From a virus: a stretch of 57,634 nt of DNA. Every line of letters starts with the position of its first letter. The first letter of the stretch is position 1. The notes under the pieces are model-generated. The model saw nothing but the letters and a program-made list of their open reading frames with translations, made no database searches and was not told where the DNA came from. Location: IMG/VR virus record IMGVR_UViG_3300045988_159412. One strand, written 5' to 3'. Positions 6,142 through 27,963 of the stretch are shown here, piece by piece. The translations under genes were made by a program, and so were the position numbers.

Positions 6142-6143
6142 TC

Positions 6144-8096: not shown

Positions 8097-8103
8097 ACAA
8101 ATC

Positions 8104-11100
8104 ATGGAAGAGCTTTCAGAACAACCCGAAGATTCTATCCTGTTGGATGAAATAAAGAAAATGAATTCGGGCCTCGCTTCTAATAAGGAGCAACCTGAAA
8201 TAACAGAAGAGGATTTAGAAGCAAATCCTCAAGCTTACTCTTCTGAACAAATTGAAGGGGTTTTAAGAAACAAGAGAAGTATTCGCACAAAGCTTGACGA
8301 TTATTTAAGGATGTCGTCTAGCTTGCTTCCTACTACTCCACGAGAAGCCTTAGATGCCGTAGGGACATTGCGTGAGGAACTGCAAGCAAATGGTATAGAC
8401 CCGGAGTATGAGAGGTATCGTGAGAAGATAAAAAGAAACGAAGATATAGTTTATTCGGTTACTAGGTATATCAATCCAACAACAGGCTTGTTTGGGGATG
8501 TTCCTGCACAAGATGTAACAAACAATAAGCTGGAAAAAATACTTAGTGCTGAGCAAATTAGGGATTTCAATAATGCCCCGCAGTTTATGCGAGACAAATA
8601 TGTTTTCAATCGCATTGTTGAAAACTTTTTCCCGGAAGGGGAGATGGATAAAGGGTATGCACTAGAACTCCTGAAAAAGCATTATCAAACCGACTCAATG
8701 CACGGAGTTGTCAGCAAATACGCTCAAGAGCTTCAAAGGAACAAGGATGAGGAGACAGCATACAATGAAGCCTCTACCAGATTTTTCGATTCCTTTATAG
8801 AAACAGGAGGCGATTACCAGAAAGCAATCGACAGCTTGGAAGGCAATCTAAACCTGTATGCGGAAAACATTTTCAACCAAGAACCTGCGCTTAAATACAT
8901 TTACCAGCGTGCGTATAACTCCGTCTCATGGATTAAAGATGAATACATAGAAAGCGGAGAGCTGGATTGGGACAAGATGGCAGACAGGTTGTTGAAGCTT
9001 GGGGAAGGAGAGACGTTCTCTCTAGCCATTCAGATGCTTCCCTACATGTTGCCCAAAGACGACAGGACTTGGCTAACCCAAGCCATAGACGACACCGCCT
9101 CTGATGTCTCCCGCTTTGCTAGGCTCATGGTTGACGGAGGAGGTGATAGCGCCCAAGCAGAACGCCTTGCGTTGGCTATCCAGCAGGAATATCGTCAGGG
9201 CCGAGACATGCCTACTTCGTGGCTAGGAATAGCGGCTAAGGTAGCAACAGACCAAGTTCCCAAGATAACGGCAGTAACAGGAAGTACTCTTTTAGCTAGT
9301 GGTGGAGGCCCTGTATCTATGGCCGCCACAGGTATGGCTGTCGGCTCAATGGTGTATGGTTCAACGGTAGGTCTTGAGGCATATAGGACGAATTCTTCTA
9401 GGGCAGGAGCATTGACATATGGTGTTACTGTTGGGGCCTTGGAAGGTCTCCTTGAAAACGTAACTCTTGGCGTTGGTGCTTTGGCCTCCAAAGGTATTAA
9501 GGTGGCAGAGGCAGGTAGGAAAATGGCCTCTGTTGCCGGAAGAGTTCCCGCTACCGTAAGAGGTGCGGCGGCTGGTGCTTTGTCTGAATATACCCAAGAA
9601 GTCATTGCTGACCCAATTTATGTTGGATTGGAGAATGTAATGCGCTCTGCGGGGTTTGAGCTTACCCAGCAAAACACCCTTAAAAACTGGTGGGAAACAT
9701 TGGACTTCACATCCCCTGAACTATTGGGGGCTACAGCCATTCTTGGCGGCTCCATTGGTGCTGTTGGGGGCTATCAAGCTAACCACCTCATCAACCGAGT
9801 AGGAAGAAGCGCTTCGGCTCTTCAAGCTTATGGTGTACCCGAATCGGAAGCTGTGGCTATTGCCGAAATGCCAGACGGCAAGGAGCGCACAAACAGGCTT
9901 ATATCGGCCCTTCGCAATAACCGGGTAAGCCCCGACGTGCAAATAACAAACCAGCAAGCGGGGATATTCCTGAACTTTTTAGCTAAGAATGCAGAGAGGT
10001 TTAAGGATGTTGAGCTGATGCCGGAGATATCCGACAACGGGGACGGAACCTTTAATATTGTTGAGAGAGACCCGGTAAGTGGAGCTGAAAAAGTAACCAC
10101 AGTAACAGACGAAATCGCAGGGACGTTCATGTCTCAAGCGTTGCAGTCAAATCCGGGATTTATCAGGGCATTAAATATTTTCGCCCAAGAAGAGATAGAG
10201 TCAGGGGTGGGCAAGGAGACGAAGATAAAGAGCTATACTCCTGACGAACTCCGAGCAAAAATCCAATCCACAGAAGACAACAATGCAACTATAGCACGAC
10301 TTAGGGCTTTGGCTGTAATTAACCAAGACCCGGAATTGTTGCAGAGTTTTCGTGATGGGAAAGTAAGTATTGAAGATGTAGCAAATGAGCTGGAAATTGT
10401 ATCTGCATATAGAGATGGCACGATTGCTGTTGCGAGGGGTGAAGCGAATCCTCTCAATATTCTGGAAGAAATAATTCACGCCCGTGCAATATCCGATTTG
10501 GAGAGCGGCGTTATTTCTCGAAGCGTCATTGAAACACAGGTAAGGAATTACTTGGAGTTCTTGGGACGTAGTGCGGAAGAGATAGGGGATTTGAGCAATG
10601 ACGTTGTGTTGCAGGAACATTTGGCGAATATGGGGAAGGCTTTGGCAACAACGCCGGAACTGTTTTCCGCAATGCCCGGCAATGTTCAAACAATCCTTGA
10701 GTGGCAGAAGGACGCTATAGCGGAAGTTGGGAATGTCTTTGCGGAAGGCGCTCTGATAAAAGAGGCCATTGAGCAGGGCATTGTCTCTCCCGATTTTGTC
10801 AAGTGGTCTAAATCTTTGGCGACTATGGCCGAACGTCGTGACGGTCAGGATATGGCAGAGCTTGTCAATGGTGCGACCGGAGAAAGCATTTTGCCAATGG
10901 GCCAGAGCCTTCCTTCCGTGAGGAGGCGTGGAACCATTGATGTAACTCCTTCTGTAAGAACCATTAATGAAGCCATATCAAACATAGTCAATGGCGCATC
11001 GGAAAGGTCTATAGGCCAGCTCCACAAATTGCAGAGGAGCATGATAAAGCTTTCGGAAAGGTTTTCTCAAGGGAAGCTGACCGAACGAGGACAACAGAAA

Positions 11101-14100
11101 GCGTTACTGAATTCTGTTCTCTCTATCGCTAATGCAATGGCTTCCGGTAGCCGGAAGTTTATCTCCAACCAGCTTGCCGAAAGGCTTGCGAATCCCAAGA
11201 GCAACGAAGCGTTTAATGCGGACATGAAGACTGCATTGGATGCCACAGTAGCGGCCTTGAACGAAAGAGCGGAGGCGGCGAGCCGGAAGCAGTTGGAGCG
11301 CATTATTCAGGACGAGATAAACAGGAGGGTTGAGCAAGCGGACGCTAAAGCCAAGAAGGATTTCAACAGGGAAATGAAATTCCTCCGGGGTTTAATCTCC
11401 AAGGAAATAAGGAAAGACATCAAGGAGGAAAGAGCGGAGGCGGCGGCAGAGAAGAAGCTTGCCAGTAAAAGCATACAGAGCTTGCGAAGGCTTGCCGAGA
11501 ATGCTTTTAAGGACACCAAGGGGCGCTCTCGTTCTTTGGACGCACAAGCCAGAGAGGAGACTATGGATGCCCTTGAGGTTATGGCTATGTCTCCTTCCGA
11601 AGTTGCAACCCAGCTTGAAGTCTTGGATAGCACCATAGATGAGCTTCAAAACCAGCCTGCCACAGAAGAACTTGCTCTGGAACTGGAAAATCTGGAAAAC
11701 CAAAAGAATCTCCTTGAGGTGTTTGGTAGTGCGTTGTATCGGGAGAAGATGCCTAACGGAAGGTATAAGTATGCTCTCAATGCACAGCAACTTGCGGAAG
11801 CAGTTAAGACATTGAAGGAGCTACAGCGTGAAGGGCGACTCCGCAGGAAAAAGGTTAATGAACGTATTGAGCGCTTCTATAATGATTTTAACGCTAAAAT
11901 CAATGAGCGAGTAGGAGGAGAGAAGAATCGTGATGCCCTTAGAAAAGCCGTAATGGAAAGGGACCAACGGGGAACGGGCTTTTTAGATAGAATCTTCACG
12001 CAATTCATGAGCCTTCAACAACTCCTCGAAGTGATGTCTTCCATGAAATCCTTTAAGGACATAGGGACATTCTTGCAGAACAACGTCCAATTCGCAGAGC
12101 AACAGCGAGGGGTAGAAAAAGAAAAGGCTACGTCCAATGCGATTCGCATCATGCGTGGAATGATGGAGATTGCAGGGCAGAACTCTCCAAGGTATTTTGA
12201 TGAGCTTTCTACAAAAACTATTCCCTTTATGGGGCATGAGCTAACCAAGTATGGCCTTGTAAAAGTCTATCAGACATTGAGAGAGAAGGATGGCTTGGCT
12301 GTATTGAGAGAAAACCTTGGAGACAAGGGGATGGATTTCGGCAACTATCGTAAGTACCAACAGGAGTTGGAGGGCTTAAACAAGAGCCTTGATGATGGCG
12401 CCATTACTTCCGAAGAGTTTGAGTCCAATCTGGAAGTCATTGAAGAAGAATACCTTGCGAGGAAGGAAAAAGATATTGCCAAGCTATTGGAATTGCTTGG
12501 GCCGGATGGGCTTTACCTTGCTGACGAGTTACAGAACCTGTATCGGGAAAAGGGCGAGAAGCTACGGGCGTTCATGGCAGAGAACTATGGCCAGACGGTT
12601 ATCCTTGATGACTACTATACGCCCCGCAATATTGCCGCCTATAATACAATGCAAGAAGGGGATATGGATGCTTACAGTAAGGGACACGTCACAAGGACGG
12701 GCTTGCCCTCTTACGCAAAGCACCGGAACACTCCCTCTTCGGCGGCGCTCTCTCTGGAAATAAACCCTCTTGGGGAATATCTTCGTTATAGCTCTATCAT
12801 GGAGGGGTGGATGACAGCTTCGGAACTGGTCAACTTCAACAACCGGGTATGGGCTAATCCCACAACGAATGCACAGTTGCAGAAATTATTAGGCCCAGCC
12901 AATTTCGAGGCGGCAAACAAAGCCCTGTATTACTTCATCAACGAGGGGCGTGTGTATGCCCAAAAGAGCATGTTGGCAGAGGTAATGGGGAAAGTGTTCC
13001 AAGTATTGGCTAAGACAAGGATTGCTTTCTCCTTGGCTTCTCTGGTGCGCTCTGGGGCGGCTTTGTTCAACCCTATCGTTGGTAGCAACTTCTCCATGAT
13101 GGAAATTATCAAAGGCGTGGCAGAGGTGACAAGCGGGAACTATAAAGGTTTTACCCTTGAAGAGCTTCGTGACTTGGAGGCAATGAAGGAACGTAAGTAC
13201 CGTGGATGGGAAGACCGTGTGCTTGCCGATAAGGCATTAAGCATTCCCCTAAAAAAACAAGCGCAATGGGGATATTGGCAGGAAGCGGGCATGAGCGGCC
13301 TTATGGCTTTTGACTGGTGGAGCATATCTTTTGTGAATCAGCTGACCTCCCACATGCTTGCTAATCGCGGTTTGTCGCATGAACAGATAAGATGGGAGCT
13401 TAACAAAAACATCTACCAGACGGCACAGCCTTTATCTACCTCCGCTAAGGCTATCCACTTGATAGGTGGAAGCTCATTTGAGCAAGCCCAGTTCCTTTTC
13501 TTGTCCGACGTGATGAACAAGTTCGGCCTAGTGATGATGCAAGGCAAAAAGGATGTTCCTTTCTGGGAGGCTTTTCAGGGAGCCTTTCGTGTTTATACTA
13601 TTGCCGCTCTTGCTAATGGTCTCTTCAACGGCTTGGCTACAGGTTTGTTTGGCGATAAAGACAAAGAGGACGACTTCATGAGCAACTTCTTATTGACTTC
13701 GGTATTGAGTCCGATTGTTTCTGTCCCTATGTTCGGCGGGTTTGCAGAGTGGTGCGCTTCCCTTATTAGCGGTGGTAAGCAATTCAGTCTGGGACGAGCC
13801 GATATGGCTGATTTATCCAAATCAATTCAAGGCTTAGTCAGAAGTATTGTGAAGACGTATGAGACTGTATCGGAAAAATGGGACAAGGAAGGTGCTTTGA
13901 CTACCAATGATTACATTGATATGGTTTCCTATGTAGGCAAAAATATTGGGAGTGTCGCATCGGCTACCACAATATTTGGTACTTCTGGGCAGAGTATGAC
14001 CAAAGCTCTAGAGATGGTAGGTGCATTATCAAATGCCCTTTCACAAGCTAAGACGACCACACAGAAATTCCTTCCAGAGTCAGTAAATCCCCTCTATACC

Positions 14101-14256
14101 GAAAAAGAAGCTATGAAGGAGAGGGCTAGGCAGATAAGAAGGGAGAAGAAGAAGGCCAAGCAGGAAAACGGCGAAAGGTCAGCAACCTACAGAAAACTTT
14201 CACGGGAATTAAGGCAAATAAACAAACAGTTGAAGATAAGGGGCTGGGAAGACTAG
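8104..14256 (+). CDS. tape-measure-like protein, ~2050 aa
   Basis: Gly/Ala-rich hydrophobic stretches in the N- and C-terminal thirds (e.g. VTGSTLLASGGGPVSMAATGMAVGSMVYG; LANGLFNGLATGLFG). Central charged coiled-coil (AEAASRKQLERIIQDEINRRVEQADAKAKKD...). This is the classic tape-measure architecture. First in-frame ATG (MEELSEQ) is at 8104; the track start at 8038 overlaps the upstream gene. Confidence 0.65.
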   Translation: MEELSEQPEDSILLDEIKKMNSGLASNKEQPEITEEDLEANPQAYSSEQIEGVLRNKRSIRTKLDDYLRMSSSLLPTTPREALDAVGTLREELQANGIDPEYERYREKIKRNEDIVYSVTRYINPTTGLFGDVPAQDVTNNKLEKILSAEQIRDFNNAPQFMRDKYVFNRIVENFFPEGEMDKGYALELLKKHYQTDSMHGVVSKYAQELQRNKDEETAYNEASTRFFDSFIETGGDYQKAIDSLEGNLNLYAENIFNQEPALKYIYQRAYNSVSWIKDEYIESGELDWDKMADRLLKLGEGETFSLAIQMLPYMLPKDDRTWLTQAIDDTASDVSRFARLMVDGGGDSAQAERLALAIQQEYRQGRDMPTSWLGIAAKVATDQVPKITAVTGSTLLASGGGPVSMAATGMAVGSMVYGSTVGLEAYRTNSSRAGALTYGVTVGALEGLLENVTLGVGALASKGIKVAEAGRKMASVAGRVPATVRGAAAGALSEYTQEVIADPIYVGLENVMRSAGFELTQQNTLKNWWETLDFTSPELLGATAILGGSIGAVGGYQANHLINRVGRSASALQAYGVPESEAVAIAEMPDGKERTNRLISALRNNRVSPDVQITNQQAGIFLNFLAKNAERFKDVELMPEISDNGDGTFNIVERDPVSGAEKVTTVTDEIAGTFMSQALQSNPGFIRALNIFAQEEIESGVGKETKIKSYTPDELRAKIQSTEDNNATIARLRALAVINQDPELLQSFRDGKVSIEDVANELEIVSAYRDGTIAVARGEANPLNILEEIIHARAISDLESGVISRSVIETQVRNYLEFLGRSAEEIGDLSNDVVLQEHLANMGKALATTPELFSAMPGNVQTILEWQKDAIAEVGNVFAEGALIKEAIEQGIVSPDFVKWSKSLATMAERRDGQDMAELVNGATGESILPMGQSLPSVRRRGTIDVTPSVRTINEAISNIVNGASERSIGQLHKLQRSMIKLSERFSQGKLTERGQQKALLNSVLSIANAMASGSRKFISNQLAERLANPKSNEAFNADMKTALDATVAALNERAEAASRKQLERIIQDEINRRVEQADAKAKKDFNREMKFLRGLISKEIRKDIKEERAEAAAEKKLASKSIQSLRRLAENAFKDTKGRSRSLDAQAREETMDALEVMAMSPSEVATQLEVLDSTIDELQNQPATEELALELENLENQKNLLEVFGSALYREKMPNGRYKYALNAQQLAEAVKTLKELQREGRLRRKKVNERIERFYNDFNAKINERVGGEKNRDALRKAVMERDQRGTGFLDRIFTQFMSLQQLLEVMSSMKSFKDIGTFLQNNVQFAEQQRGVEKEKATSNAIRIMRGMMEIAGQNSPRYFDELSTKTIPFMGHELTKYGLVKVYQTLREKDGLAVLRENLGDKGMDFGNYRKYQQELEGLNKSLDDGAITSEEFESNLEVIEEEYLARKEKDIAKLLELLGPDGLYLADELQNLYREKGEKLRAFMAENYGQTVILDDYYTPRNIAAYNTMQEGDMDAYSKGHVTRTGLPSYAKHRNTPSSAALSLEINPLGEYLRYSSIMEGWMTASELVNFNNRVWANPTTNAQLQKLLGPANFEAANKALYYFINEGRVYAQKSMLAEVMGKVFQVLAKTRIAFSLASLVRSGAALFNPIVGSNFSMMEIIKGVAEVTSGNYKGFTLEELRDLEAMKERKYRGWEDRVLADKALSIPLKKQAQWGYWQEAGMSGLMAFDWWSISFVNQLTSHMLANRGLSHEQIRWELNKNIYQTAQPLSTSAKAIHLIGGSSFEQAQFLFLSDVMNKFGLVMMQGKKDVPFWEAFQGAFRVYTIAALANGLFNGLATGLFGDKDKEDDFMSNFLLTSVLSPIVSVPMFGGFAEWCASLISGGKQFSLGRADMADLSKSIQGLVRSIVKTYETVSEKWDKEGALTTNDYIDMVSYVGKNIGSVASATTIFGTSGQSMTKALEMVGALSNALSQAKTTTQKFLPESVNPLYTEKEAMKERARQIRREKKKAKQENGERSATYRKLSRELRQINKQLKIRGWED

Positions 14257-14285
14257 TCCCCCCCTCAACCTAACCAACACTAACA

Positions 14286-15110
14286 ATGGCAATAAAAAAA
14301 AAGGTAAAAGCAGTAGAGCCGGAAGTGGTTTCCTCTGTTGAGCCAGAGGTGGCGGCAGTCCCCATGACAATGGCGGCGGCCACACCTCGCTCCAACGGAC
14401 AATCGTCCAACGGCTTTGCTAAGGTAGAACAGGGGAAATCCTATGTTCTATCCGTCAATGCCCCTTCTGGTTCGGCAGAAGTCGAACTATTGGCGGCAGA
14501 TAGTGATACACAAAGCGAACCTGACATGTTTTCTCTTCTTTACACGAAAGTGGAGAACTCTATGCAGATTCCCTTTGTGGCTGTTTCTTCTTGGGTATAT
14601 GTGCAAGCAGGTAATAGTAGCATTAACTGGCTTGTAACACCGGCAAATTTTAGTCTCGCCGTTCCCGGTGTGTCGTCCGGTGGCGGCGAAAGCTTTGACC
14701 CCGCTTCTGACTACAACATTTCAGGGAAATGGAAGTTTACACAGCCCCTTAAAATTGCAGAAGCAACGGTAGCGACAGAGGCTGTAACTCTAGGGTATGT
14801 TAAGGCACGATTCCAGCAGACTGTTGACATAATTTCAACACAAACCATAGGCGGCACTAAGACCTTCTCTGCGTCTCCTGTAGTTCCAATTCCTACTATG
14901 CAAAACCAAGCGGCTAACAAAAACTACGTTGACGCTAATATTATCCAAGTGAAGAGCCTGTTGGAAAAAACTATGGGCTATGTGGAAATGACGGAAGCGG
15001 AGTATAACGCTCTTAGCGAAAAAGCAAACAACTGTATTTACTATCTAACCGACAAATCTATGTGGGCTATCGGCGACAAGCAGCTTGTCACGTCTGATAT
15101 GCCTGCGTGA
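14286..15110 (+). CDS. tail fibre protein, 274 aa
   Basis: C-terminal motif IGGTKTFSASPVVPIPTMQNQAANKNYVDANI matches the conserved G-x-KTF...P...P...A-x-NK-x-YVD signature of phage tail fibres. Directly downstream of the tape-measure-like gene. Confidence 0.65.
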   Translation: MAIKKKVKAVEPEVVSSVEPEVAAVPMTMAAATPRSNGQSSNGFAKVEQGKSYVLSVNAPSGSAEVELLAADSDTQSEPDMFSLLYTKVENSMQIPFVAVSSWVYVQAGNSSINWLVTPANFSLAVPGVSSGGGESFDPASDYNISGKWKFTQPLKIAEATVATEAVTLGYVKARFQQTVDIISTQTIGGTKTFSASPVVPIPTMQNQAANKNYVDANIIQVKSLLEKTMGYVEMTEAEYNALSEKANNCIYYLTDKSMWAIGDKQLVTSDMPA

Positions 15111-15150
15111 TAGTCCCCTCTCCCGATTTCGGGGGGGGCATAACTCTTTT
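15111..15150 (+). terminator. putative rho-independent terminator after the tail-fibre gene
   Basis: GC-rich hairpin cccctctcccga-ttt-cgggggggg followed by ataactctttt, immediately after the stop at 15110. Confidence 0.4.
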
Positions 15151-15163
15151 ATAATCAATAGCA

Positions 15164-15527
15164 ATGTACTTATATAATACAACAATCCAATCAGCTGAAT
15201 TAGCCACAGGCAGTGCTGTTGCTGTGACACTCCCAGAAGATGCTCCAGAGGGCATGTATGAAATACGCTTCATTAGTGCAACACCAACAGGAACTTGCCT
15301 CATTAAAAGAGGATTGGATTGTCACGGAAGCTGTGCTTTTCCCGAGCGTTGATGACCCGTCAGAAACTGTAGAGATAGAAGTTTCTGCTAGACACACCTC
15401 AATAAAACTTTCTGACCCTCGCGTACCTATAAAATTTTTCACGTCATGCGAGATTCCTGCTCTAAAAAAGAAAGACAAGGATTTGATGGAGTTCTTAAAA
15501 TGGATAGCAGAAACAAGGTTAGAATAA
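15164..15527 (+). pseudogene. two overlapping small ORFs (62 aa at 15164..15352; 95 aa at 15240..15527) in different frames; possibly one frameshifted small gene
   Basis: Both translations look protein-like. The frames overlap around an A4 run (cattaaaagagg) where a 1-nt shift would fuse them into about 120 aa. Confidence 0.25.
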
Positions 15528-15793
15528 ATACTCGACATGAACAACACTTCATCCTAGTATACCAACAGTTGCTATTCCGGTAGCCACTGTATATAGGTGT
15601 TTCAATGTCATAAAGACAGGGCCTCCGTTAAAAGCGAGGGTCCTGTTTTTTATGCGTGTTCGAGCAACTTGTAAGCTTTCCTTACAAGTTCGATGAACTG
15701 TAAAGAAAAACTTTACAGTTGACCAAGGGAACAGGATTTGGTCTAATGCTCTTGGAAGAATTCATTTCTTCTTTCGTTGTGCATATTCGAGCG

Positions 15794-15847
15794 GAGCAGC
15801 TTCGGGGTTTTTTCTCATGTTTTACCCGAAGCTGCTCTTCTTTTTTG
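15794..15847 (+). terminator. strong hairpin (13-bp perfect stem gagcagcttcggg/cccgaagctgctc, 18-nt loop) followed by ttcttttttg; terminator-like or structured RNA element
   Basis: Stem arms at 15794-15806 and 15825-15837 are exact reverse complements. T-run at 15838-15847. Lies inside the 1.5-kb non-coding region. Confidence 0.5.
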
Positions 15848-16646
15848 TCTTGAAACAGGCCTGATGTAAAAAATATGTGTTGTATGACACAACTATAATT
15901 AACTAATAACCATATACTTATGTCACACAATGTTCCGTTTCGAGCGTTTTCGATGTCAAACTTTAGGCTTGACTTTTTGAGGGGTGTGTCGTTAAAATCT
16001 TGTTCAAGGAACAGGGCGGTTAAGTTGATTGTCTTCCTTTGGCCGCTCCAAGGCTCAATCTCCCTCGTGGTTAGCAACAACCAAGTGTTTAGCAAATAAC
16101 TTGGTTCTCTACAAGAAAAGAGTTCGGATATGGCAAGCATATCCTTCATGATTTTTCAAAAGTTTTGATTTACGCCTATCGGCTATGGAGCCAAACAAAG
16201 TTGTGGGCTTGGTTAGAGAAACAACGGGATTAGAAAAGAATTGGTTTAAAAACATTTCTAATTTGGAACACGTTGGTTAGAGAAAGTATGTAAGAATAAA
16301 CCATTTAATATTTAATTATCAGTTTTATTCCTTCGTTCGACTAACAGGTTGCATAGAGCGGCTAACAAGAGAGCCAAGTTCGAAGGTGTTAGCGAAACGA
16401 TAACATAGACCACTTCGAAGTTATTAACTACCGTCTCCAACCACAAAGGACGTTACACCGTATATACGCGCGCGCGAATTTATAAGAGAGGAAAACAAAA
16501 ACTTTTCTCTCTTTTGTATGACATTTTCAAAAAAAAAAAAAACATTGATTACTCTCTCGTTGCTTATTAGTATTGCTACATCGTTCAGGAAATACACCAT
16601 GTAGCTCCTAACGAAAAACAACCAATAACCAAAACTAATAAATAGT

Positions 16647-17180
16647 ATGGAACGAAAAAAAATAAACGGAGAGGAATTTCCGAAAAGCCTGTTGAGAGGA
16701 CTTATTGCCATGTTTGACGATAATCCTGTTAGGAGCGCCATGTTTATGACTGATTTTGAAGACTTGTGTAAGAAAGGTATTGATTTAAATCCTGATTGCA
16801 ACGTCTGGTATAGAATCAGTCCTGACGCTATCGACTTAGTTGACGAATTGGAGATTTCCGAAGAGGGTAAAACAACCATTAAGAAGAAAATCTCCAATCT
16901 TATCGGAGCGCCTGTTTTCCATGTTGGTGAAAACGCTAAGACTGATTCGCTTGTTGTGGCGGGTCTAGTCGAAGGCAAAATGATTGGCTTTGATAAAAAG
17001 TATTTCTATAAGATTAAATCCAAGCCTTACATGAAGAAGCTGAAAAAGGCGCTCTTCGTTTCCGCTTCTTGGGAAGAATTTATCAAACCTCTTATTTATA
17101 CCATCAGAGGATTTGGGCTTGATAAGTGCGCTAGCTTCCCTAGTATTGAGGCGAAGCGTTCCGATGAAGAAGAAGATTAA
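16647..17180 (+). CDS. hypothetical protein, 177 aa, acidic C-terminus
   Basis: ATG ORF with an A-rich leader. The competing 184-aa antisense ORF is low-complexity. Confidence 0.55.
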   Translation: MERKKINGEEFPKSLLRGLIAMFDDNPVRSAMFMTDFEDLCKKGIDLNPDCNVWYRISPDAIDLVDELEISEEGKTTIKKKISNLIGAPVFHVGENAKTDSLVVAGLVEGKMIGFDKKYFYKIKSKPYMKKLKKALFVSASWEEFIKPLIYTIRGFGLDKCASFPSIEAKRSDEEED

Positions 17181-17538
17181 CCTTGCAGTCTTGAATAACT
17201 TTTTAACGTTCCTGAACAATGTTCATGAGCTAACCGAGCGAGGTTGGGTTCATGAGGCAACAGGGACAATGTATAAAAAGTGTTCAAAGCTTTTCGACAC
17301 ATTCAAAGAGTCCTATTCAGGCAATTCCCTAAGCCCCGATAAAGACATCGTTATGGAGGAGGTTTCCTTAACAGAGACACCTAGTGATGACGAAGTACTT
17401 GAGGTGCTTAGGGAAGAATGTGACGAGATTTGCGAATACCTTTATGAGGTAGCCGGACAAGAATCATTTTTAGTTTCACAAGTAGATGAAATTAAAACTG
17501 TTTTGAGTCAGCAACTATTTGTTGCTAGGAAGGTGTAG
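17164..17538 (+). CDS. hypothetical protein, ~124 aa
   Basis: ATG (MKKKINLAV) overlaps the upstream stop by 17 nt. The track's longer start at 17113 would run deep into the preceding gene. Confidence 0.5.
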   Translation: MKKKINLAVLNNFLTFLNNVHELTERGWVHEATGTMYKKCSKLFDTFKESYSGNSLSPDKDIVMEEVSLTETPSDDEVLEVLREECDEICEYLYEVAGQESFLVSQVDEIKTVLSQQLFVARKV

Positions 17539-17662
17539 CAAAACCCTGCCATATGAGTTTATGAGCTAGGGTGAAAATCAATCCAAATCAAACAACTAAT
17601 CATATAAAAGTAGGAAGTGTGGTATATACCGTAGGTCAACCTTCCCGGCTCCCTCGTAAGAC

Positions 17663-17710
17663 CTCCGCACTACGGGCGTAAAATGCGTTAGTAGTGCGGA
17701 GTTTTTGTTT
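17663..17710 (+). terminator. rho-independent terminator or leader hairpin (11-bp stem ctccgcactac/gtagtgcggag plus tttttgttt)
   Basis: Perfect stem at 17663-17673 and 17691-17701 followed by a T-run. Ends only 14 nt before the next ATG at 17724. Confidence 0.55.
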
Positions 17711-17723
17711 GTATAGGAAAACA

Positions 17724-18116
17724 ATGAATGTTATTTGTCCATGTATGAAGACAACTTACACGTTCGAAGCGCTAGTAGAGGCTGTTGCTGTTCAGGCTGG
17801 GTTAGATACTAGTGTTCCCGAAGACCACACCAAGGCGTGTGAGCTTGCCACATGGATGCTTGACGAAGGATATTCTTCTATCGTCCTGACTCATGCGGCA
17901 GAGTTTGCAGAGGAAAAGGGTGTTCCTGCCAAATGGATTGCCCTTGTCAGCGCCATCATTGGTGCTGTTATTGCCTTTTTCTGTACTACTGGTTGTGCCA
18001 ACACATCCTTTACTTTGTCTGGTGAACAGGGCGGGCAGATTAGCTATAGCGTTGACGAAAACGGGAACCTCATTATCTCCGGCAAGCCTCCTGTCGTCCA
18101 AAAACTCAAGAAGTGA
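17724..18116 (+). CDS. membrane protein, ~130 aa, single C-proximal TM helix (WIALVSAIIGAVIAFFCTT); possible holin-like protein
   Basis: First ATG after the hairpin (MNVICPCMK). Hydrophobic helix followed by a polar tail. First of three co-oriented small genes. Confidence 0.5.
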   Translation: MNVICPCMKTTYTFEALVEAVAVQAGLDTSVPEDHTKACELATWMLDEGYSSIVLTHAAEFAEEKGVPAKWIALVSAIIGAVIAFFCTTGCANTSFTLSGEQGGQISYSVDENGNLIISGKPPVVQKLKK

Positions 18117-18121
18117 CGTTA

Positions 18122-18367
18122 ATGCCGACAACAAAAATTGCTTCTCTTCTTCAAGTTGTTAAGGATTATAAGGAGATTGTAATCCTGTTCGCTCCTTTGG
18201 TATGTTGCTTCTTTCTGTATCAGGACAACGTAAAAATGCGGCAGGACATGCTAAAGTTGCAACAAGACCAAGCTCATGCGACATTGAAGATTTCAGAAGC
18301 AATGGCTCAACAGGTAGAGCTTATTCGGCGCATTGATTATACTGTTACCTCTCTTCAAAACAAATGA
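18122..18367 (+). CDS. small membrane/coiled-coil protein, ~82 aa (TM IVILFAPLVCCFFLY, then heptad-like charged region); possible spanin- or holin-like protein
   Basis: Overlaps neighbouring genes by a few nt. TM plus coiled-coil layout. Confidence 0.45.
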   Translation: MPTTKIASLLQVVKDYKEIVILFAPLVCCFFLYQDNVKMRQDMLKLQQDQAHATLKISEAMAQQVELIRRIDYTVTSLQNK

Positions 18368-18870
18368 ATGTCATTATCGCTATCGACAAGCAAGATAAAG
18401 TTCTAACTAATATCGCATCAAACCTAGTAGAACTTCTGGATAAAGAGCTTCTAAAGCCATCTCTGGACATAGTTCCTCTCACAAGGGATGTGAACCTGTT
18501 TATGTCTAACAGGTGGGACAATATGAAGGTTGATTTTATCTTGCGGTTGCGGACATCATACGTCACTTCTAATCGCAGTACCTATCAGAAAATCGTCTCT
18601 TCAAATACTCAAGGGCCTTTTGGTTTCAGGCTTCTTCATACGTCGCATTCTTTGTTGGAAAAAGAGGGGTGGGGACAATACGGATTCAACCCCTGCACAG
18701 AGTTTAAGGGCCTCCCCGGCTGGATTGATTTCATGGATATTGAGCTTGCCAATATGGGCGACCCCAAAGATATTGCCGCTATCGGCGACGGAAAGGTTTT
18801 TGCTCAAAGCGCCGCTCAATGGATGAACAAGGCCGCAAACTGGTTACGGATTGGCAGGAAGAAAAAATAA
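18364..18870 (+). CDS. hypothetical protein, 168 aa (candidate lysis enzyme by position only)
   Basis: ATG overlaps the upstream stop (ATGA). Last + strand gene before the convergent junction at 18870/18874. No catalytic motif recognised. Confidence 0.5.
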   Translation: MNVIIAIDKQDKVLTNIASNLVELLDKELLKPSLDIVPLTRDVNLFMSNRWDNMKVDFILRLRTSYVTSNRSTYQKIVSSNTQGPFGFRLLHTSHSLLEKEGWGQYGFNPCTEFKGLPGWIDFMDIELANMGDPKDIAAIGDGKVFAQSAAQWMNKAANWLRIGRKKK

Positions 18871-18873
18871 CTG

Positions 18874-19227
18874 TCAGCCAAAAAAGAAATCATCTATTTT
18901 CTCCAACTCCATTTTAGACAAGGGAGCCTGTTTGTGGTAAGCGGAAATCCCCGCCCGTCTTGTCCTTCGGGGGTTTATCAGGTTAAGAGGAATACATCTC
19001 TTGGTTTTAAAGTCTTTTCTGTATAGCTCTGCCCGGCGTTGAAAGTGTTTGCTGGCCGCTAAACAAAAGTCCATAGCCTTGATTTTATTCCCCCTCAAAG
19101 TGTCCTTGATGAACATGTTAGGCGTATAATGGTATCTCTTGAGGAGCTTCCTTAGTCTCACTCCTTTAGCATAACCTCCGAGAACGTTATAAAACTGTTT
19201 ATCGGTAAGCTTGTTTATGTATAGCAT
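18874..19227 (-). CDS. hypothetical basic protein, 117 aa
   Basis: Last gene of the - strand operon. Its stop is 3 nt from the stop of the convergent + gene. Confidence 0.5.
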   Translation of the reverse strand: MLYINKLTDKQFYNVLGGYAKGVRLRKLLKRYHYTPNMFIKDTLRGNKIKAMDFCLAASKHFQRRAELYRKDFKTKRCIPLNLINPRRTRRAGISAYHKQAPLSKMELEKIDDFFFG

Positions 19228-19232
19228 GCCTA

Positions 19233-19799
19233 TTATGCCAGCTGGAATTTTTTAGACGCCTCACGCTGGAACTCTGTGTAAGTTTCAGGATAGCATAAAC
19301 AATGGCCTAAACGAGAGAGGACGTATGCATCCGCTTCGTTGTTGTTGGATGTATCTACATCCCAGCGTTTGTAAACATTGGTCATCACCAGCCCTTTCTC
19401 TGCAACACCTTTCCCTGTTGCGAATTTTTTCAGGGTAGTCGGAGGGTAAACCAGAATATTGGACAATCCTGCATCAAACAGGTTTTGTTTCACAACGCCG
19501 CCAAGTTCTCCTAGGTGGACGATTTTCCCAAACTGCGAGAAGGCATAATTCTCTATACACACCAGAACTTCGCTAGCGGGCCTGTAGGCCAATATTTGTT
19601 CTGCGGCGAGCTTTATATGGTTAGCGAACTCGGAGAGCCGCCTAGGCCCCTTGTGGGGGCTTGTGAGGGTATATCTGTAGCCGTCCAGCTTGATGTCTTG
19701 GTAAAGGACGGAAAGCCCTGTTGCTGTCAGGGATAAATCCAGCCCAACCCAACAACTGAAATCTCTAAAAACGTTGGCGATTACTTTGTCTTTTTCCAT
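19233..19799 (-). CDS. RuvC-like Holliday-junction resolvase, 188 aa
   Basis: Aligns by eye to E. coli RuvC. GLDLSLTATGLSV matches GIDPGSRVTGYGV. VCIENYAFS matches FAIEQVFMA (catalytic Glu). KKFATGKGVAEKGLV matches KQTVVGIGSAEKSQV. NEADAYVLS matches DAADALAIA. Confidence 0.85.
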   Translation of the reverse strand: MEKDKVIANVFRDFSCWVGLDLSLTATGLSVLYQDIKLDGYRYTLTSPHKGPRRLSEFANHIKLAAEQILAYRPASEVLVCIENYAFSQFGKIVHLGELGGVVKQNLFDAGLSNILVYPPTTLKKFATGKGVAEKGLVMTNVYKRWDVDTSNNNEADAYVLSRLGHCLCYPETYTEFQREASKKFQLA

Positions 19800-20041
19800 G
19801 ATTTTTTCTCTGATAATGGGAATCTGAAATCGACAAGCTCAAATCGGGAGTCCTTTTGAGTCATCACTATCCCTCCATTGCGGCTTCTTTTCAGCACCAC
19901 AACACCGAACACAGAGTTTTGTTCAAATTCTGTATCTGGATTTTTCTGAATTTCGCAAATTGCTTCCGCAGTTGTATGCAAAACCTCTGCTTCTGGCTCT
20001 TTTTTCCTAGGAGGGCGCCCCCTTTTAGTTGTCTTTTCCAT
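19781..20041 (-). CDS. small DNA-binding protein with AT-hook-like KRGRPPRK, 86 aa
   Basis: N-terminal GRP AT-hook motif. Overlaps its neighbours by short ATGA-type junctions. Confidence 0.5.
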   Translation of the reverse strand: MEKTTKRGRPPRKKEPEAEVLHTTAEAICEIQKNPDTEFEQNSVFGVVVLKRSRNGGIVMTQKDSRFELVDFRFPLSEKKSWKKTK

Positions 20042-20414
20042 ATTCTAGTTCTTGTTTTGCCAACCTATACGCCTCACGCCCGTCTAGTCCGGGTGTTCTC
20101 ATTTGGATTCCTACTGCTTTTTCAAGGCGGTTGAGGACAATCTTACCTTTTTTGTCTATGATAGCAAGAGGGTCTTTGTAGCCGCTAACGATAAGTATTC
20201 TCATGCAAAGGATGATAACGTCTGCACATTCAAACGCCATTTCCTTCTTGTTTTTGGCCGAAAGAAGTTCTTCTACCTCTTCCTTGAGATGTTTTTTGAG
20301 CTGTGGGACAGTCTCTTTAACACCTAAAAATTTACTGAAAACATTACATATTTGTTTGGCGATATTGTACACTCTAACCTTCCTTTCATATTGAAACAAA
20401 TCCATGCTACGCAT
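20025..20414 (-). CDS. MazG-like nucleoside-triphosphate pyrophosphohydrolase, ~129 aa
   Basis: Motif LKEEVEEL...EMAFECADVIILCMRIL fits the MazG/HisE EExxE...E-x-x-D signature. The likely start MRSMDLF at 20414 has an aaggag Shine-Dalgarno-like motif 5 nt upstream. Confidence 0.65.
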   Translation of the reverse strand: MRSMDLFQYERKVRVYNIAKQICNVFSKFLGVKETVPQLKKHLKEEVEELLSAKNKKEMAFECADVIILCMRILIVSGYKDPLAIIDKKGKIVLNRLEKAVGIQMRTPGLDGREAYRLAKQELEYGKDN

Positions 20415-20622
20415 TATCTCCTTTGTTTGTAATATTCCTGCACGCGGCACGCTTCTGCCATGCGTCACGGATGGCATCTTCAACGCCGTACATTATCCGG
20501 GGTTCTCCGTGGTAATCGCCGCATTCTTTGAAGCCTTCCGTGAAGCGCATGAGGCTTTTTCGCTCTTTCAGGATTCCAAGGGCTTCTCCGTACTTCAAAA
20601 AATCTTTTTGTTCAGCATTCAT
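20407..20622 (-). CDS. hypothetical protein, 71 aa
   Basis: Small ORF that fills the gap in the operon. Its stop overlaps the MazG-like start region. Confidence 0.4.
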   Translation of the reverse strand: MNAEQKDFLKYGEALGILKERKSLMRFTEGFKECGDYHGEPRIMYGVEDAIRDAWQKRAACRNITNKGDNA

Positions 20623-20729
20623 TTTCCTTTTATTTTGAATATAATATATTGTATAATTAAAATAATCCCCAACACGATTAAAAATGAGACCGTGAGAATA
20701 TCGAATAAATCAACAATTATCATAGATTT

Positions 20730-20942
20730 TCACCCTTTTCTGGTTCGTCGTCGTTGCATTCTAAAAAGAGTTTCTTCCTCCGAGGAACACGGGTCGAGTT
20801 GATACCCACAATTAGAACATTTAGGGATATATGCCTTCTTTCCAAAAGGATAGCCTTGTTTACCAAGGCCAGTAAACACGATATCCTTAACAATGAAATA
20901 CTCGTTATGACATATTGGACATTTTGGATTTTTTGCGCTCAT
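20730..20942 (-). CDS. zinc-ribbon protein, 70 aa (CPIC ...18 aa... CSNC)
   Basis: Two C-x2-C pairs. Start overlaps the stop of the upstream nuclease gene (ATGA). Confidence 0.5.
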   Translation of the reverse strand: MSAKNPKCPICHNEYFIVKDIVFTGLGKQGYPFGKKAYIPKCSNCGYQLDPCSSEEETLFRMQRRRTRKG

Positions 20943-22084
20943 TTTTTAACTATCCTTTCTTTCTGTTTTTTTTCGACGATATAGCTTCCAAAGATTTTAT
21001 TGAATTGTTCGTTCGATGCTTTTCTAGACTGCTTCCCGTTCACAATGTTTTGGTGTTTGTGAAAAGCCTCTTCCAGCTTAGAGACTGAAACACTAACGGC
21101 TTCCATCATGTCCCCTAGAGGAATGACTTGCTGAACCCTAGATAACCCTTCGTTTTTAAAGCTACGAACCGTATTTCCTTCTTTTAAACCAAGGCCGTCA
21201 ATCTCTTCGCCATTTTTCAGCAACTCATAACATGATTCTTCTATCTCTTTGGCCACCTTCGAGGCCAATTTAGCTGTAAAATATAGCTTAGAGCGTTCTT
21301 CTGGATTCATTTGTTTCAGCTTAGAAGAAAAAGCTGTAGCGGGGGTAGTGATTGTTTGCACCACCTCTAACGGCTTTTTGCATTCAGCAAAACCCTTGCA
21401 GTACCTGCAATAGCTGTTAGCTTGAGGTGGAAGGTCCTTTTTGGTGCGTTCGCATATCTCAATGACTTCTTTTTCTGCCTCTTTGATGTCCTCTTCGCTG
21501 TACCTCACAATAACAGGATAAGAAGTCACCAGAGGTTGAACAATGGCACAAGAGACTGATTTTATTTTGCAGTCCTGATAATTCCTTTCGATGTGTTGCT
21601 TGCAACATAGGGCCAACCCTCTAAGCTGGTGGTTTATTTGTGTTGACTCTGGCTCTAAAGGCCCTGTCTTGTAGTCGATAATCAATAAATGAAATCCCTC
21701 TTCGTCAGACTTACCTAAAACCACGTCGGGTTTCCCAGAAAAGAGTGCATTGTCCCCATCGAAAAAGAAACACCTTTCCTCCTTCATCAATTCCTCGAAC
21801 TTGTCTTCTCCCGCCCAAATCGACGCAACTTCGGTCACAATTCTTTTGCATGCAAGCATGAGCTTCGTCTCTTCTTCGGTGAGTAGTATGTTTTGGTATG
21901 CAAGGTATTGATGAATCCTGTTGCCTCTTTCAGCCATTTCAGAGGTTGTCTCTACTCCTTCAACGTCATATCTCAATGAGTGCGGACATAACGCAAGACG
22001 TGCTAGGCTGGAACATGAAGGCAATCCTTGTCTTTCCGTATCTTTTGTTTTCATTATTTCTCGTGTATTTTTTTTGTTATTCAT
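20939..22084 (-). CDS. Cas4/RecB-family PD-(D/E)XK nuclease with 4-Cys cluster, 381 aa
   Basis: GKPDVVLG...HLLIIDYKTG gives the D...D/E-x-K core. Cys at ALCPH plus C-terminal CRYCKGFAEC give the C...C-x2-C-x5-C arrangement of Cas4-type Fe-S nucleases. Confidence 0.7.
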   Translation of the reverse strand: MNNKKNTREIMKTKDTERQGLPSCSSLARLALCPHSLRYDVEGVETTSEMAERGNRIHQYLAYQNILLTEEETKLMLACKRIVTEVASIWAGEDKFEELMKEERCFFFDGDNALFSGKPDVVLGKSDEEGFHLLIIDYKTGPLEPESTQINHQLRGLALCCKQHIERNYQDCKIKSVSCAIVQPLVTSYPVIVRYSEEDIKEAEKEVIEICERTKKDLPPQANSYCRYCKGFAECKKPLEVVQTITTPATAFSSKLKQMNPEERSKLYFTAKLASKVAKEIEESCYELLKNGEEIDGLGLKEGNTVRSFKNEGLSRVQQVIPLGDMMEAVSVSVSKLEEAFHKHQNIVNGKQSRKASNEQFNKIFGSYIVEKKQKERIVKK

Positions 22085-22148
22085 CTTCTGGCTCCCAATC
22101 TACATACGCCTCAAACTCATAATCCATACAATGTTAGACAGTAGATGT

Positions 22149-23003
22149 TTAAGCGTTTTCATTGTTTTCTTTCTTTTTGAATATTGGCGATTCTGGCGAC
22201 TTGTCTTCTTCATTGGAGAAAGCTTCGTCTTTACTTATGGCCCCGGTTTTAATGGCGTTGAATAGACCAATAAGCATTACTATTTCAGATTCCTTACTAG
22301 TCTCAATTTTGTGTTTAAGGTAAGCCTCAAGCATTTCTTTGGAGACTCCGATTTTGGAAAAGGCTATTACACATCCATTTATTCTTTCAGCAATGGGTGT
22401 ATCTGTGGCTCTTAGCGTGTTTTGGCAAGCCTCTGCCGCCTCTTGCCTAATGAAGTCCGGCAATACCGCCCAAATGCACGCCCTGATGCGTCTAGAGGCC
22501 ATATTAGCGCAAAGTTCATAAATATCTCTATCGGACGTAAGAGGATATCCACCGTCTTTTGTGTCCCTGTGGTGCGGAACAGAAAAGGCTATCTCCCTTC
22601 TTATGTTGTTTTCTTTGTCCCAACAGAAAGCTATACAGTCGGAGCAAACCCTTCCTTTTTCATCTACATGTTCACCTATCTTTCTCCACCCAGCTTCTGC
22701 GTTCCCATAAGCGGTAAGGCACGCATTTGCTAAATGGATTGTCTCTCCTGAAATACTAGAACCTCCCCTTTTGTATTCGAAGAATGCGGTGTTAGCCAAA
22801 TGACGGAACGAGCAAAGCTGTCTAATTTTGGAGGAAACCTCCATCATGTTTCTCGGCATCTGCTTTGCTATATATATAGAGGCAAGCGCCTCTAGCGATT
22901 CTTTGTTGGAAAGTACGTTAGCAAGCGGATTCCCAGCAAGAGGTGCTATCATGGATAAGCCTTCTGCCGGGACTGTGGTCAATTGTTCTGGGTTGTCTGA
23001 CAT
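22149..23003 (-). CDS. putative single-strand annealing/recombination protein (RecT/Redbeta-like by synteny), ~285 aa
   Basis: Sits immediately upstream of the PD-(D/E)XK exonuclease in the same operon. No decisive motif seen. First ATG (MSDNPEQ) is taken as the start; the track's 306-aa version starts at a TTG. Confidence 0.5.
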   Translation of the reverse strand: MSDNPEQLTTVPAEGLSMIAPLAGNPLANVLSNKESLEALASIYIAKQMPRNMMEVSSKIRQLCSFRHLANTAFFEYKRGGSSISGETIHLANACLTAYGNAEAGWRKIGEHVDEKGRVCSDCIAFCWDKENNIRREIAFSVPHHRDTKDGGYPLTSDRDIYELCANMASRRIRACIWAVLPDFIRQEAAEACQNTLRATDTPIAERINGCVIAFSKIGVSKEMLEAYLKHKIETSKESEIVMLIGLFNAIKTGAISKDEAFSNEEDKSPESPIFKKKENNENA

Positions 23004-23072
23004 GCCCTCATTGTATCTTTTCTCCCACACATGGCAATCTTTTTTTATTTTTTTTCTTGTGCATGTCAAAAC

Positions 23073-23477: not shown

Positions 23478-23486
23478 AATCAGGAT

Positions 23487-24119: not shown

Positions 24120-24149
24120 CGTCCCCTTAACTACCAGAAAACAAAAGTG

Positions 24150-24191
24150 TAATAAAAAACCCCTGTAGCCTAAATAAAGACTACAGGGGTT
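24150..24191 (-). terminator. rho-independent terminator of the AT-rich - strand operon
   Basis: Stem aacccctgtag/ctacaggggtt at 24158-24168 and 24181-24191. On the - strand it is followed by ttttttatta. Lies between convergent genes. Confidence 0.55.
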
Positions 24192-24216
24192 GAATTTGGT
24201 GTATTTTTATGACAAA

Positions 24217-24903: not shown

Positions 24904-24916
24904 GTTTTTTGTTTTG

Positions 24917-27960: not shown

Positions 27961-27963
27961 TTC

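Follow-up and report, generated by a model that had tools for sequence, protein, structure and literature searches.

In phage T7, ~1.3 kb of non-coding DNA, comprising the terminal repeat and the early promoters, lies between the last late gene and the first early gene on the circular map. Intrinsic terminators usually have loops of 3-8 nt, iteron-type replication origins carry at least three direct repeats, each about 17-22 bp long and set at regular intervals, and tyrosine-recombinase-type core sites consist of 9-10-bp inverted arms around a 5-7-bp spacer.

The interval analyzed here spans positions 15111-16646 of IMGVR_UViG_3300045988_159412, a sequence of 57,634 nt that is referred to in its entirety as the window. 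The window is an exact 57,634-nt reverse-complement palindrome with a unit of 28.8 kb, and the mirror copy of the interval at 40989-42524 does not constitute independent evidence. The source phage belongs to an uncultivated podovirus lineage without a close cultured relative. The interval follows a plus-strand structural operon, which runs from terminase to fibre, and precedes a second operon of the same strand with five small genes at 16647-18870; none of the genes neighboring the interval has a recognizable family. We estimate a probability of roughly 60% that this 1.5-kb interval is an operon boundary; neither an origin of replication nor one large structured RNA is supported. It is probably composite, in that the boundary of the two plus-strand operons would be made of four parts: decayed genes, tandem terminators, a possible ~93-nt RNA unit and spacer.

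The original prediction saw no convincing long open reading frame in the interval, and ORF checks in relatives and under alternative genetic codes bear this out. No ORF in the interval stays open in relatives as an intact protein-coding gene would: a 155-aa minus-strand ORF is shortened to 81 or 47 aa in six of them, and the start codon of a 48-aa ORF is missing in most. Stop-codon reassignment hiding a gene was considered and rejected, as no long ORF appears under codes 4 and 15; all three stop codons are used by confident genes of the phage. A tRNA and tmRNA search returned none. The original prediction described the interval as non-coding; 15880-16646 holds no conserved ORF under any genetic code, but some 420 nt at the 5' end are decayed coding DNA. 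At 15111-15528, relatives have one or two genes in intact form, the finding that the original prediction had itself named as a sign of a degraded gene. The window retains the following remnants of them:

15164-15295, plus strand: 5' remnant of gene A, its first 44 codons, the ORF continuing out of frame to 15352
15286-15295, plus strand: deletion junction, at which the 10-nt direct repeat AACAGGAACT survives as a single copy
15296-15527, plus strand: 3' remnant of gene B, its last ~79 codons and stop, the first 46 codons being deleted

In relatives, genes A and B are small, hypervariable and located directly after the fibre gene. Intact gene A encodes 149 aa, with start MYLYNTTIQSAELATGS, in L013, L004 and L010, while alleles of 141-161 aa are found in other relatives; it has no Pfam or PHROG family. 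Intact gene B encodes 125 aa (MMVKI... or MILRA...) in L013, L004, L010, L011 and L014. L013 carries the 10-mer twice, at gap positions 182 and 659, and the intervening 477 nt are absent from the window. This comparison shows that a deletion between the direct repeats fused genes A and B out of frame and wrecked both accessory genes. The 95-aa ORF of the window at 15240-15527 opens at an unrelated ATG and then runs in the gene B frame.

Each of the hairpins and repeats listed by the original prediction was recovered, in place or a few bases away. Its picture of a region packed with hairpins holds for 15560-15880, to which exceptional folding is confined (z -3 to -7.6 in sliding 120-nt windows; z -5.2 to -6.7 for single elements), but not for 15880-16646, where z-scores of ~0 to -2.7 are ordinary and comparable to those of coding DNA elsewhere in the unit. 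The structured block contains two terminator-like hairpins (T1 and T2) and two palindromes (H2 and H3), together with a candidate promoter (P1):

15612-15651, plus strand: T1, intrinsic-terminator-like hairpin with imperfect stem at 15617-15645 and T6 at 15646-15651
15666-15690, no strand: H2, perfect 25-bp palindrome, AACTTGTAAG-ctttc-CTTACAAGTT
15696-15720, no strand: H3, perfect 25-bp palindrome, AACTGTAAAG-aaaaa-CTTTACAGTT, abutting the TTGACC box
15719-15747, plus strand: P1, candidate promoter, TTGACC - 17 nt - TCTAAT
15755-15848, plus strand: predicted P1-to-T2 transcript of ~93 nt (92-95 nt in all haplotypes), small RNA or leader
15793-15846, plus strand: T2, terminator hairpin with a 13-bp perfect stem (arms 15794-15806 and 15825-15837)

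The confinement of structure to this block bears on the possibility that 15529-16646 produces one large structured non-coding RNA of ~0.7-1.1 kb, as might be suggested by the 94-99% identity of the block among relatives while the neighboring fibre and 177-aa genes show 55-70% amino-acid identity. All relatives, however, belong to one species-level population, mosaic and mostly 98-100% identical, so phylogenetic footprinting is shallow; the 98-99% identity of relatives in the interval equals the genome-wide background, while the flanks that diverge represent recombination cassettes. We accordingly rejected conservation as an argument for function, identity profiles reaching 98-100% across most of the genome. 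In the search for more distant relatives that could show covariation, a homologue search with the C-terminus of a 2072-aa protein returned near-identical proteins only, and a profile scan of viral contigs added one further lineage. Moreover, the part of the block with ordinary fold z-scores tolerates 30-53-nt indels, small inversions and hairpin-loop flips among relatives, and the covariance-model scan proposed by the original prediction gave no match at gathering or permissive thresholds: Rfam 15 yielded 0 gathering-score matches in the window, and the best permissive hits (E ~1) were to eukaryotic snoRNA and miRNA models. A single large RNA is thus extremely improbable. More generally, metagenomic relatives can be nearly identical simply because they form a mosaic population at the species level, and not through constraint.

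The proposal that a terminator cluster separates late and early operons fared well, T1 and T2 being canonical and lying directly 3' of the structural operon. T1 (dG -21.2 kcal/mol, z -5.2), with a loop in the usual short range (about 3-8 nt), is present in all window-type haplotypes, mostly with a stronger stem, and is missing from the divergent haplotype represented by L006, L011 and L014. T2 (dG -29.7 kcal/mol, z -6.7) is followed directly 3' of its stem by the T-run TTCTTTTTT at 15838-15846. Between the window and the divergent haplotype, 8 of its 13 pairs are changed on both sides and 0 are broken, with 100% of cells paired against 38-50% in slid controls, although this compares two lineages and is effectively one comparison; the pairing kept through these eight double-sided changes further backs the terminator proposal. 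Simple terminator and promoter scans gave no enrichment over shuffles, and a consensus terminator scan misses T2 because its loop, GTTTTTTCTCATGTTTTA, measures 18 nt, too long for the short-loop criterion (about 3-8 nt). We consider T1 and T2 probable intrinsic terminators, predicted from sequence, at the end of the structural operon, where their observed structure and conservation are consistent with a tandem arrangement that would end late transcription.

A loop of 18 nt is atypically large for an intrinsic terminator, which is a point against reading T2 as one. The loop sequence is found in this phage lineage only, and the two haplotypes, only ~50% identical elsewhere, share both the loop and the T-run. 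The conservation of the loop suggests a second role beyond termination, and T2, with its conserved loop and co-varying stem, is a promising candidate dual-function RNA element.

P1 provides a possible source for such an RNA. Its TTGACC box is paired with T[CA][TG][AC]AT at exactly 17 nt in every haplotype, in surroundings only ~50% identical, and the distance from P1 to T2 is likewise constant in every haplotype. In the window haplotype the -10 element reads TCTAAT, without the important A in second place, and across the genome sigma-70-like hexamer pairs are no more frequent than expected by chance. Both P1 and P2, a second match discussed below, have their hexamers at the sigma-70-type spacing of 17 +/- 1 nt. 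Shine-Dalgarno sites are absent from the phage genes, and the host may therefore use a different promoter grammar. Two alternatives were considered and rejected: the -7 box of Bacteroidota-type promoters, TAnnTTTG, is missing from the plus strand in the gap and reaches only chance frequency over the genome as a whole, and the 2072-aa protein, considered as a virion RNA polymerase that would read early promoters, has no DxDxD motif and no solved-structure match.

From P1, transcription would yield a ~93-nt RNA ending at T2, with a predicted dG of -35.1 kcal/mol (z -6.3) and a predicted two-hairpin layout and length that are the same for the transcripts of both haplotypes. This RNA could be either a small regulatory RNA or a leader with regulated T2 read-through; in the former case, the conserved U-rich loop, with CUCAUG at its center, would be the recognition surface. 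Searched for targets, the unit (~70% of the genome) holds no outstanding translation-initiation region: the best duplexes of the loop with such a region, at -10 to -12 kcal/mol, are unexceptional and differ between haplotypes. That P1 is a promoter and that a ~93-nt P1-T2 RNA is made are hence both possible on the sequence evidence, and the earlier suggestion of one or more small RNAs narrows to this unit (~15755-15848), for which the conserved -35/-10 pair, the constant spacing and the conserved two-hairpin layout speak.

Between T1 and P1, palindromes H2 and H3, each with 10-bp arms and a 5-nt spacer, stand 30 bp apart, have related half-sites, are unique in the unit and adjoin P1. L094 keeps both H3 arms but has the spacer inverted, so that it reads TTTTT; the orientation of the spacer being irrelevant there, a DNA site fits better than an RNA loop. 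Analogous adjoining AACTG...CAGTT 25-mers occur in L133 and L223, and the divergent L006/L011/L014 haplotype is without H2 and H3. Counting exact H2 arms only, with the 5-nt spacer left free, the H2 arrangement turned up in no fewer than 17 independent families of viral contigs, for the most part between genes. A degenerate palindrome pattern was discarded, as it mixed H2-type sites with the unrelated coding motif TGKxSLxV. A literature search by sequence returned PCR primers only, and the contexts of the palindrome in cultured phages were uninformative. We infer that H2 and H3 may be sites for a dimeric DNA-binding protein positioned on the -35 box of P1.

The geometry of arms and spacer would also fit tyrosine-recombinase-type core sites that exchange the adjacent fibre and accessory cassettes and thereby explain the mosaic breakpoints. 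The arms are kept across unrelated phages while the spacer is free, H2 and H3 border hypervariable genes A and B with a haplotype breakpoint at 15529, and spacer flips are observed. Such flips are, however, a known spontaneous mutation of palindromes, the haplotype without H2 and H3 is equally mosaic, no recombinase was recognized among the 27 ORFs of the unit, and none recurs at other palindrome-bearing loci, which makes recombination sites very unlikely.

Beyond T2, the remaining ~770 nt would be an ordinary spacer or 5' leader supplying transcription of the downstream operon, and would carry a conserved 19-nt element, the weak promoter candidate P2 and mutable hairpins. The elements mapped in this part are:

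15880-15898, plus strand: 19-nt element TTGTATGACACAACTATAA; a degenerate copy in inverted orientation lies at 15912-15930
15969-15998, plus strand: P2, best sigma-70-like match of the region, TTGACT - 18 nt - TAAAAT
16058-16110, no strand: dispensable 53-nt segment with hairpin AACCAAGT...ACTTGGTT
16070-16397, plus strand: four copies of GTTAG[AC][AG]A[AC]A on the same strand, at 16070, 16212, 16276 and 16388, the 13-mer repeat of the next line being included among them
16209-16221 and 16273-16285, plus strand: exact 13-mer repeat TTGGTTAGAGAAA, 64 nt apart
16362-16394: GCTAACA/TGTTAGC inverted pair, present
16467-16476 and 16529-16542, no strand: length-variable simple tracts (CG)5 and A14
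16581-16614, plus strand: H5, hairpin TCGTTcAGGA-loop-TCCTAACGA, 33 nt 5' of the start codon of the next gene

P2 matches 10 of 12 hexamer positions but is weak evidence, belonging to a class found at chance frequency genome-wide; its -35 element is TTGATT in most relatives, and the P2 block is without informative divergence. Variation among relatives is extensive here: the 53-nt segment is absent from L004, L094 and L032, the simple tracts vary in length, with (CG)4 in L002 and A12-A14 among relatives, and at H5 (z -4.5) the loop is flipped in most relatives, a 24-28-nt segment (16583-16606) being inverted in L005-L011, L014 and L026.

The original prediction also offered a replication origin or iteron region; on such a reading the GTTAG-type words (16070-16397) would be iterons for a phage initiator, the AT-rich stretch at ~16285-16330 the unwinding element and the palindromes auxiliary sites. 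The exact repetition of the 13-mer, the occurrence of GTTAGMRAMA four times on one strand and, within the 28.8-kb unit, in this interval only, and a fall in GC to 0.38-0.41 are consistent with this proposal. There are, however, only two true 13-mer copies, in place of three or more repeats of 17-22 bp, and in most relatives the second copy carries mutations; no tandem array is present, and the GTTAGMRAMA word was defined post hoc, after the data had been seen. Its copies are irregularly spaced (142, 64 and 113 nt), copy 1 lies within the dispensable segment missing from three relatives, and many relatives have mutations in copies 3 and 4. The GC-skew check likewise revealed no origin signal, with cumulative skew flat across 15-16.6 kb and reaching its maximum at ~19 kb, at the coding-strand switch, and the recognizable replication genes are 3-12 kb off on the other strand. 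An origin at this position is quite unlikely.

The 19-nt element, unique in the unit, is kept in both divergent haplotypes. It also occurs (TTGTATGACACAAYYATAA), in either orientation, beside early promoters in a family of unrelated ~70-kb phages, with which no shared proteins were found in the fragments compared. A genome scan with the motif was rejected as a guide to the host, its 19 hits in unrelated phyla being at chance level. In the ~70-kb family the element adjoins tandem repeat arrays, often 50-500 nt from contig ends, which, together with the similar position and size of the interval, raises the possibility of a T7-like concatemer junction or packaging region. Yet no terminal repeat is visible, contig ends of relatives cluster instead, from strain variation, 5' of tail tube A at a hypervariable gene, and the sole contig ending in the gap stops in sequencing-adapter sequence; we regard this explanation as unlikely. 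An apparent 735-nt overlap at contig ends was dismissed as a terminal repeat, since it represents two alleles of a hypervariable gene.

Taken jointly, the proposals that the H2 palindrome, AACTTGTAAG-N5-CTTACAAGTT, and the 19-nt element are sites of widespread phage or host DNA-binding proteins, and that P1-T2 encodes a new loop-acting small RNA, form a tentative reading that we consider rather doubtful. If true, the H2 and 19-nt signals would belong to undescribed regulatory systems common to unrelated phages; as two short words recurring in unrelated phages, the H2 arms and the 19-nt element may mark new regulators. On the operon-boundary reading, the interval would be a boundary of the ordinary kind that carries a few signals of modest interest. 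For annotation, the lesson is that decayed cassette genes, terminators and a promoter region can together account for a phage interval that looks gene-poor and hairpin-rich, and a transcription map for an uncultivated podovirus lineage is now open to testing.

The interval resembles the T7 concatemer junction and left-end control region in having ~1.1-1.3 kb of gene-free DNA with promoters and repeats between the last late gene and the next block. It differs in that a terminal repeat is not demonstrated and that the gene order is not collinear with that of T7, the replication genes being on the opposite strand. Like T7 TE and lambda tR', the predicted terminators follow the last gene of a long operon with a GC-rich stem and T-run, and T1 and T2 stand in tandem; T2 departs from these models in its 18-nt loop of conserved sequence, and its activity is predicted only. 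The loop inversions between intact arms at H3 (L094) and 16583-16606 recall the flip-flop inversions of chloroplast non-coding DNA, although here they occur in a phage population, and they reveal the mutational behavior of palindromes, not function. H2 and H3 parallel the OR/OL operators of lambda, P22 and 434 as a pair of related palindromes separated by about three turns of the helix, with H3 touching the -35 box; unlike those operators, they are perfect 25-bp palindromes with 10-bp arms, are missing from the alternative haplotype and have arms that, for H2, recur in many unrelated phages, and no repressor gene was identified here. The P1-T2 unit differs from lambda OOP, P22 sar and lambda 6S (PR' to tR') in that it lies 3' of the late genes and not upstream, is predicted only, and comes with no identified target or overlapping sense gene and no recognized Q-like antiterminator. 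It would share with these RNAs a promoter-like pair ~95 nt 5' of a strong terminator, a two-hairpin layout and a loop bearing a YUNR-type CUCA motif, as found in antisense-RNA recognition loops.

The interval at 15111-16646, between the fibre gene and a 177-aa gene, belongs to a phage lineage that has been little sampled and represents an ordinary operon boundary. The window is identical to its own reverse complement (0 mismatches, axis between 28817 and 28818), and therefore just one 28,817-nt unit is real sequence; the palindromic arrangement, in which the interval is mirrored at 40989-42524, probably reflects a fold-back artefact of assembly or library preparation. The unit comes from an uncultivated podovirus with no close cultured relative (the best match covers 15% of tail tube B at ~35% identity) and no DNA match. 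In one relative, four large ORFs (526, 541, 295 and 330 aa) lie upstream of tail tube A, arranged as would be expected for terminase, portal, scaffold and capsid genes, their putative identities. Contig sizes indicate a genome of ~40 kb. Because a Shine-Dalgarno sequence is missing from almost all genes, the promoter grammar of the host is uncertain.

Features of the 28,817-nt unit
250-15110: tail tube A and B, internal virion proteins, a 2072-aa protein and the 274-aa fibre
15612-15651: T1, canonical hairpin followed by T6, 85 nt past the gene B stop codon
15666-15690: H2, perfect 25-bp palindrome
15696-15720: H3, perfect 25-bp palindrome
15719-15747: P1, candidate promoter
15793-15846: T2, hairpin with 13-bp stem, 18-nt loop and T-run
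15880-15898: 19-nt element TTGTATGACACAAyTATAA, once per unit
15969-15998: P2, candidate promoter
16647-18870, plus strand: five small genes of unknown function
18874-28589, minus strand: recombination and replication genes

The structural genes have a GC content of ~0.47, against ~0.30 for the small genes of the minus strand (24000-28817), a drop that suggests a module of different origin. The clearest consensus terminator of the unit, a terminator-like hairpin with a 14-bp stem and T-run, lies on the minus strand at 24158-24191, after gene 24217-24903, and a strongly structured segment (17321-17440; dG -38.5 kcal/mol, z -5.0 to -7.2) falls within the 141-aa gene at 17113-17538.

The same arrangement of fibre, gap and 177-aa gene was found in ~18 IMG/VR contigs, with gaps of 1260-2023 nt. 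Among these relatives the block at 15529-16646 retains 94-99% identity; for the fibre and 177-aa proteins on either side of it, identity drops to 55-70%. Identity profiles, however, stand at 98-100% over most of the genome, interrupted by divergent patches that represent recombination cassettes. The identity of the block was therefore rejected as a sign of constraint, and only those sites at which relatives have a divergent version of it were treated as informative. A packaging junction in the gap is unlikely. One contig (L032, contig 173975) stops in the gap, at ~16290; its last ~37 nt are CTGTCTCTTATACACATCTCCGAGCCCACGAGAC, which we take to be a Nextera adapter, and this end is adapter contamination. 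Just upstream of tail tube A lies a hypervariable 179-aa gene (L095 9449-9988; L101/L112), of which window positions 1-210 hold another allele; contigs of several relatives stop at this gene, and contig 029711_000015 carries two alleles, one per end, resembling a terminal repeat.

At the position of 15111-15528, three relatives (L013, L004, L010) carry an intact 149-aa gene A and 125-aa gene B; others carry gene A alone, as a 141-161-aa allele, and L009 has neither. A 477-nt stretch bounded on each side by a copy of AACAGGAACT is missing from the window, whose gene A shifts frame after 44 codons and whose gene B is missing 46 codons. These comparisons show that 15111-15528 is decayed coding sequence. 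It had originally been stated that a relative encoding a conserved protein in the interval would point to a degraded gene, and for this segment that is the case. Pfam and PHROGs searches returned no match for either gene. A C-rich/G-rich hairpin immediately after the fibre stop (15113-15140; G8 in the window, G9-G11 in relatives) does not fold significantly (z -1.6).

The hairpins and repeats originally listed for the interval were all recovered to within a few bases. Their reported density is borne out in 15560-15880 (z -3 to -7.6 in 120-nt windows; T1 -5.2, H2 plus H3 -5.3, T2 -6.7), the only exceptional part of the interval, and not in 15880-16646, where z ranges from 0 to -2.7, like coding DNA elsewhere. 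A large structured RNA is most improbable, given this ordinary fold, the absence of Rfam matches and the rearrangements tolerated there, as sequence comparison among relatives shows: 16058-16110 is absent from L004, L094 and L032, ~30 nt near 16172-16201 are absent from L026, the (CG)n and A-run tracts are of variable length, and the loop of a hairpin at 16581-16614 is inverted in most relatives. Since its upstream arm sits in this flipped loop, a 15-nt imperfect complementarity (13/15) between 16598-16612 and 16728-16742, around the 177-aa gene start codon, can pair in one orientation only. Within 15880-16646 no ORF is conserved: six relatives have the 155-aa minus-strand ORF shortened to 81 or 47 aa, most relatives lack the start codon of a 48-aa ORF, substitutions have no third-position bias and alternative genetic codes open no ORF.

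A replication origin with iterons had also been proposed. The 13-mer repeat does belong to a looser word, defined post hoc from data already seen, with four same-strand copies, all in this interval. These copies are irregularly spaced and lost or mutated in relatives, and cumulative GC skew peaks at ~19 kb, at the coding-strand switch, with no signal at the gap; the origin reading is unsupported and quite unlikely.

Simple terminator and promoter scans yielded no enrichment over shuffles. A second haplotype (L006, L011, L014), with ~50-70% identity over 15529-15945, lacks T1, H2 and H3 and keeps three islands: TTGACC, the T2 loop with its T-run, and AAAAAATA followed by the 19-nt element. Around the T2 loop, found in this phage lineage only, its stem is wholly different in sequence yet perfectly paired. 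On alignment, eight of 13 pairs differ at both positions and all 13 remain paired (against 38-50% pairing in slid controls), a fully compensated co-variation at the sequence level, though effectively one comparison of two lineages. T1 and T2 would terminate the structural operon. The hexamer pair of P1 is conserved in sequence: every haplotype has TTGACC and, after a 17-nt spacer, T[CA][TG][AC]AT, at a constant distance from T2. In all predicted P1-T2 transcripts (92-95 nt), a 5' hairpin and a linker precede the terminator hairpin. P1, possibly under H2/H3 control, may yield an RNA of ~93 nt with its 3' end at T2, which would act via the conserved loop or constitute a regulated leader; no T2-loop target stands out among the unit's translation-initiation regions. 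Another promoter, located farther on and close to either the 19-nt element or P2, would drive 16647-18870 via a long leader.

H2 and H3 have related half-sites, lie 30 bp apart and have no other copies in the unit. That they are recombination sites is very unlikely. A degenerate scan of viral contigs revealed at least 116 H2-type sites in at least 58 flank clusters. The exact arms, AACTTGTAAG-N5-CTTACAAGTT, occur in at least 17 independent clusters (GC 0.30-0.63), against a chance expectation for 20 fixed bases of ~0.1 or fewer if the viral collection is at most ~10^11 nt. These sites are mostly intergenic, with a free spacer and no T-run, and those of L133 and L223 have another 25-bp AACTG...CAGTT unit next to them, like H3 beside H2 (background 0.03 per kb). 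No recurrent protein family was detected at exact-arm loci, and no explanation of the element was found in the literature or annotated phages. Variants of the form AACTGGTAAG...CTTACCAGTT were rejected as kin, since they are located inside long ORFs, where they encode (P/A)TGK(D/E/Q)SL(P/Q)V in linker regions. Long phage proteins of up to ~2500 aa (L140, L143, L145, L202, L208, L218, L231, L232, L240 and others) carry that peptide in linkers rich in Pro, Ala and Glu, and the DNA encoding it is a near-perfect 25-bp palindrome giving the same peptide from both strands.

The 19-nt element is followed 13 nt downstream by a degenerate inverted copy. It occurs exactly in 17 other viral contigs, 14 of them from one ~70-kb phage family, counted as one independent event; in 596 Gb of genomes scanned, 19 scattered matches turned up, the chance level. 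In this family it lies upstream of an early gene block, after which come genes for ligase, thymidylate synthase and kinase. Among 15 members identified by protein, independently of the motif, it is exact in nine, has 1-2 mismatches in two and is absent from three. In L118 and L126 it is inverted, 13 nt from the early-promoter -35 box; apparent function in either orientation suggests a putative protein-binding site. Apart from the element, no DNA and no protein is common to this phage and the contig fragments of the family that were compared. Members of the family (L044-L060, L113-L127) carry short tandem-repeat arrays (GGGGGAACC, GGAATCATGGATACC) upstream of the element, with contig ends often 50-500 nt away, and four (L049, L050, L116, L125) have 27-nt units with GAGTATGACGCAACC, similar to the element. 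The points of moderate interest at this boundary are the conserved T2 loop, the candidate small RNA and two recurrent cis-elements.
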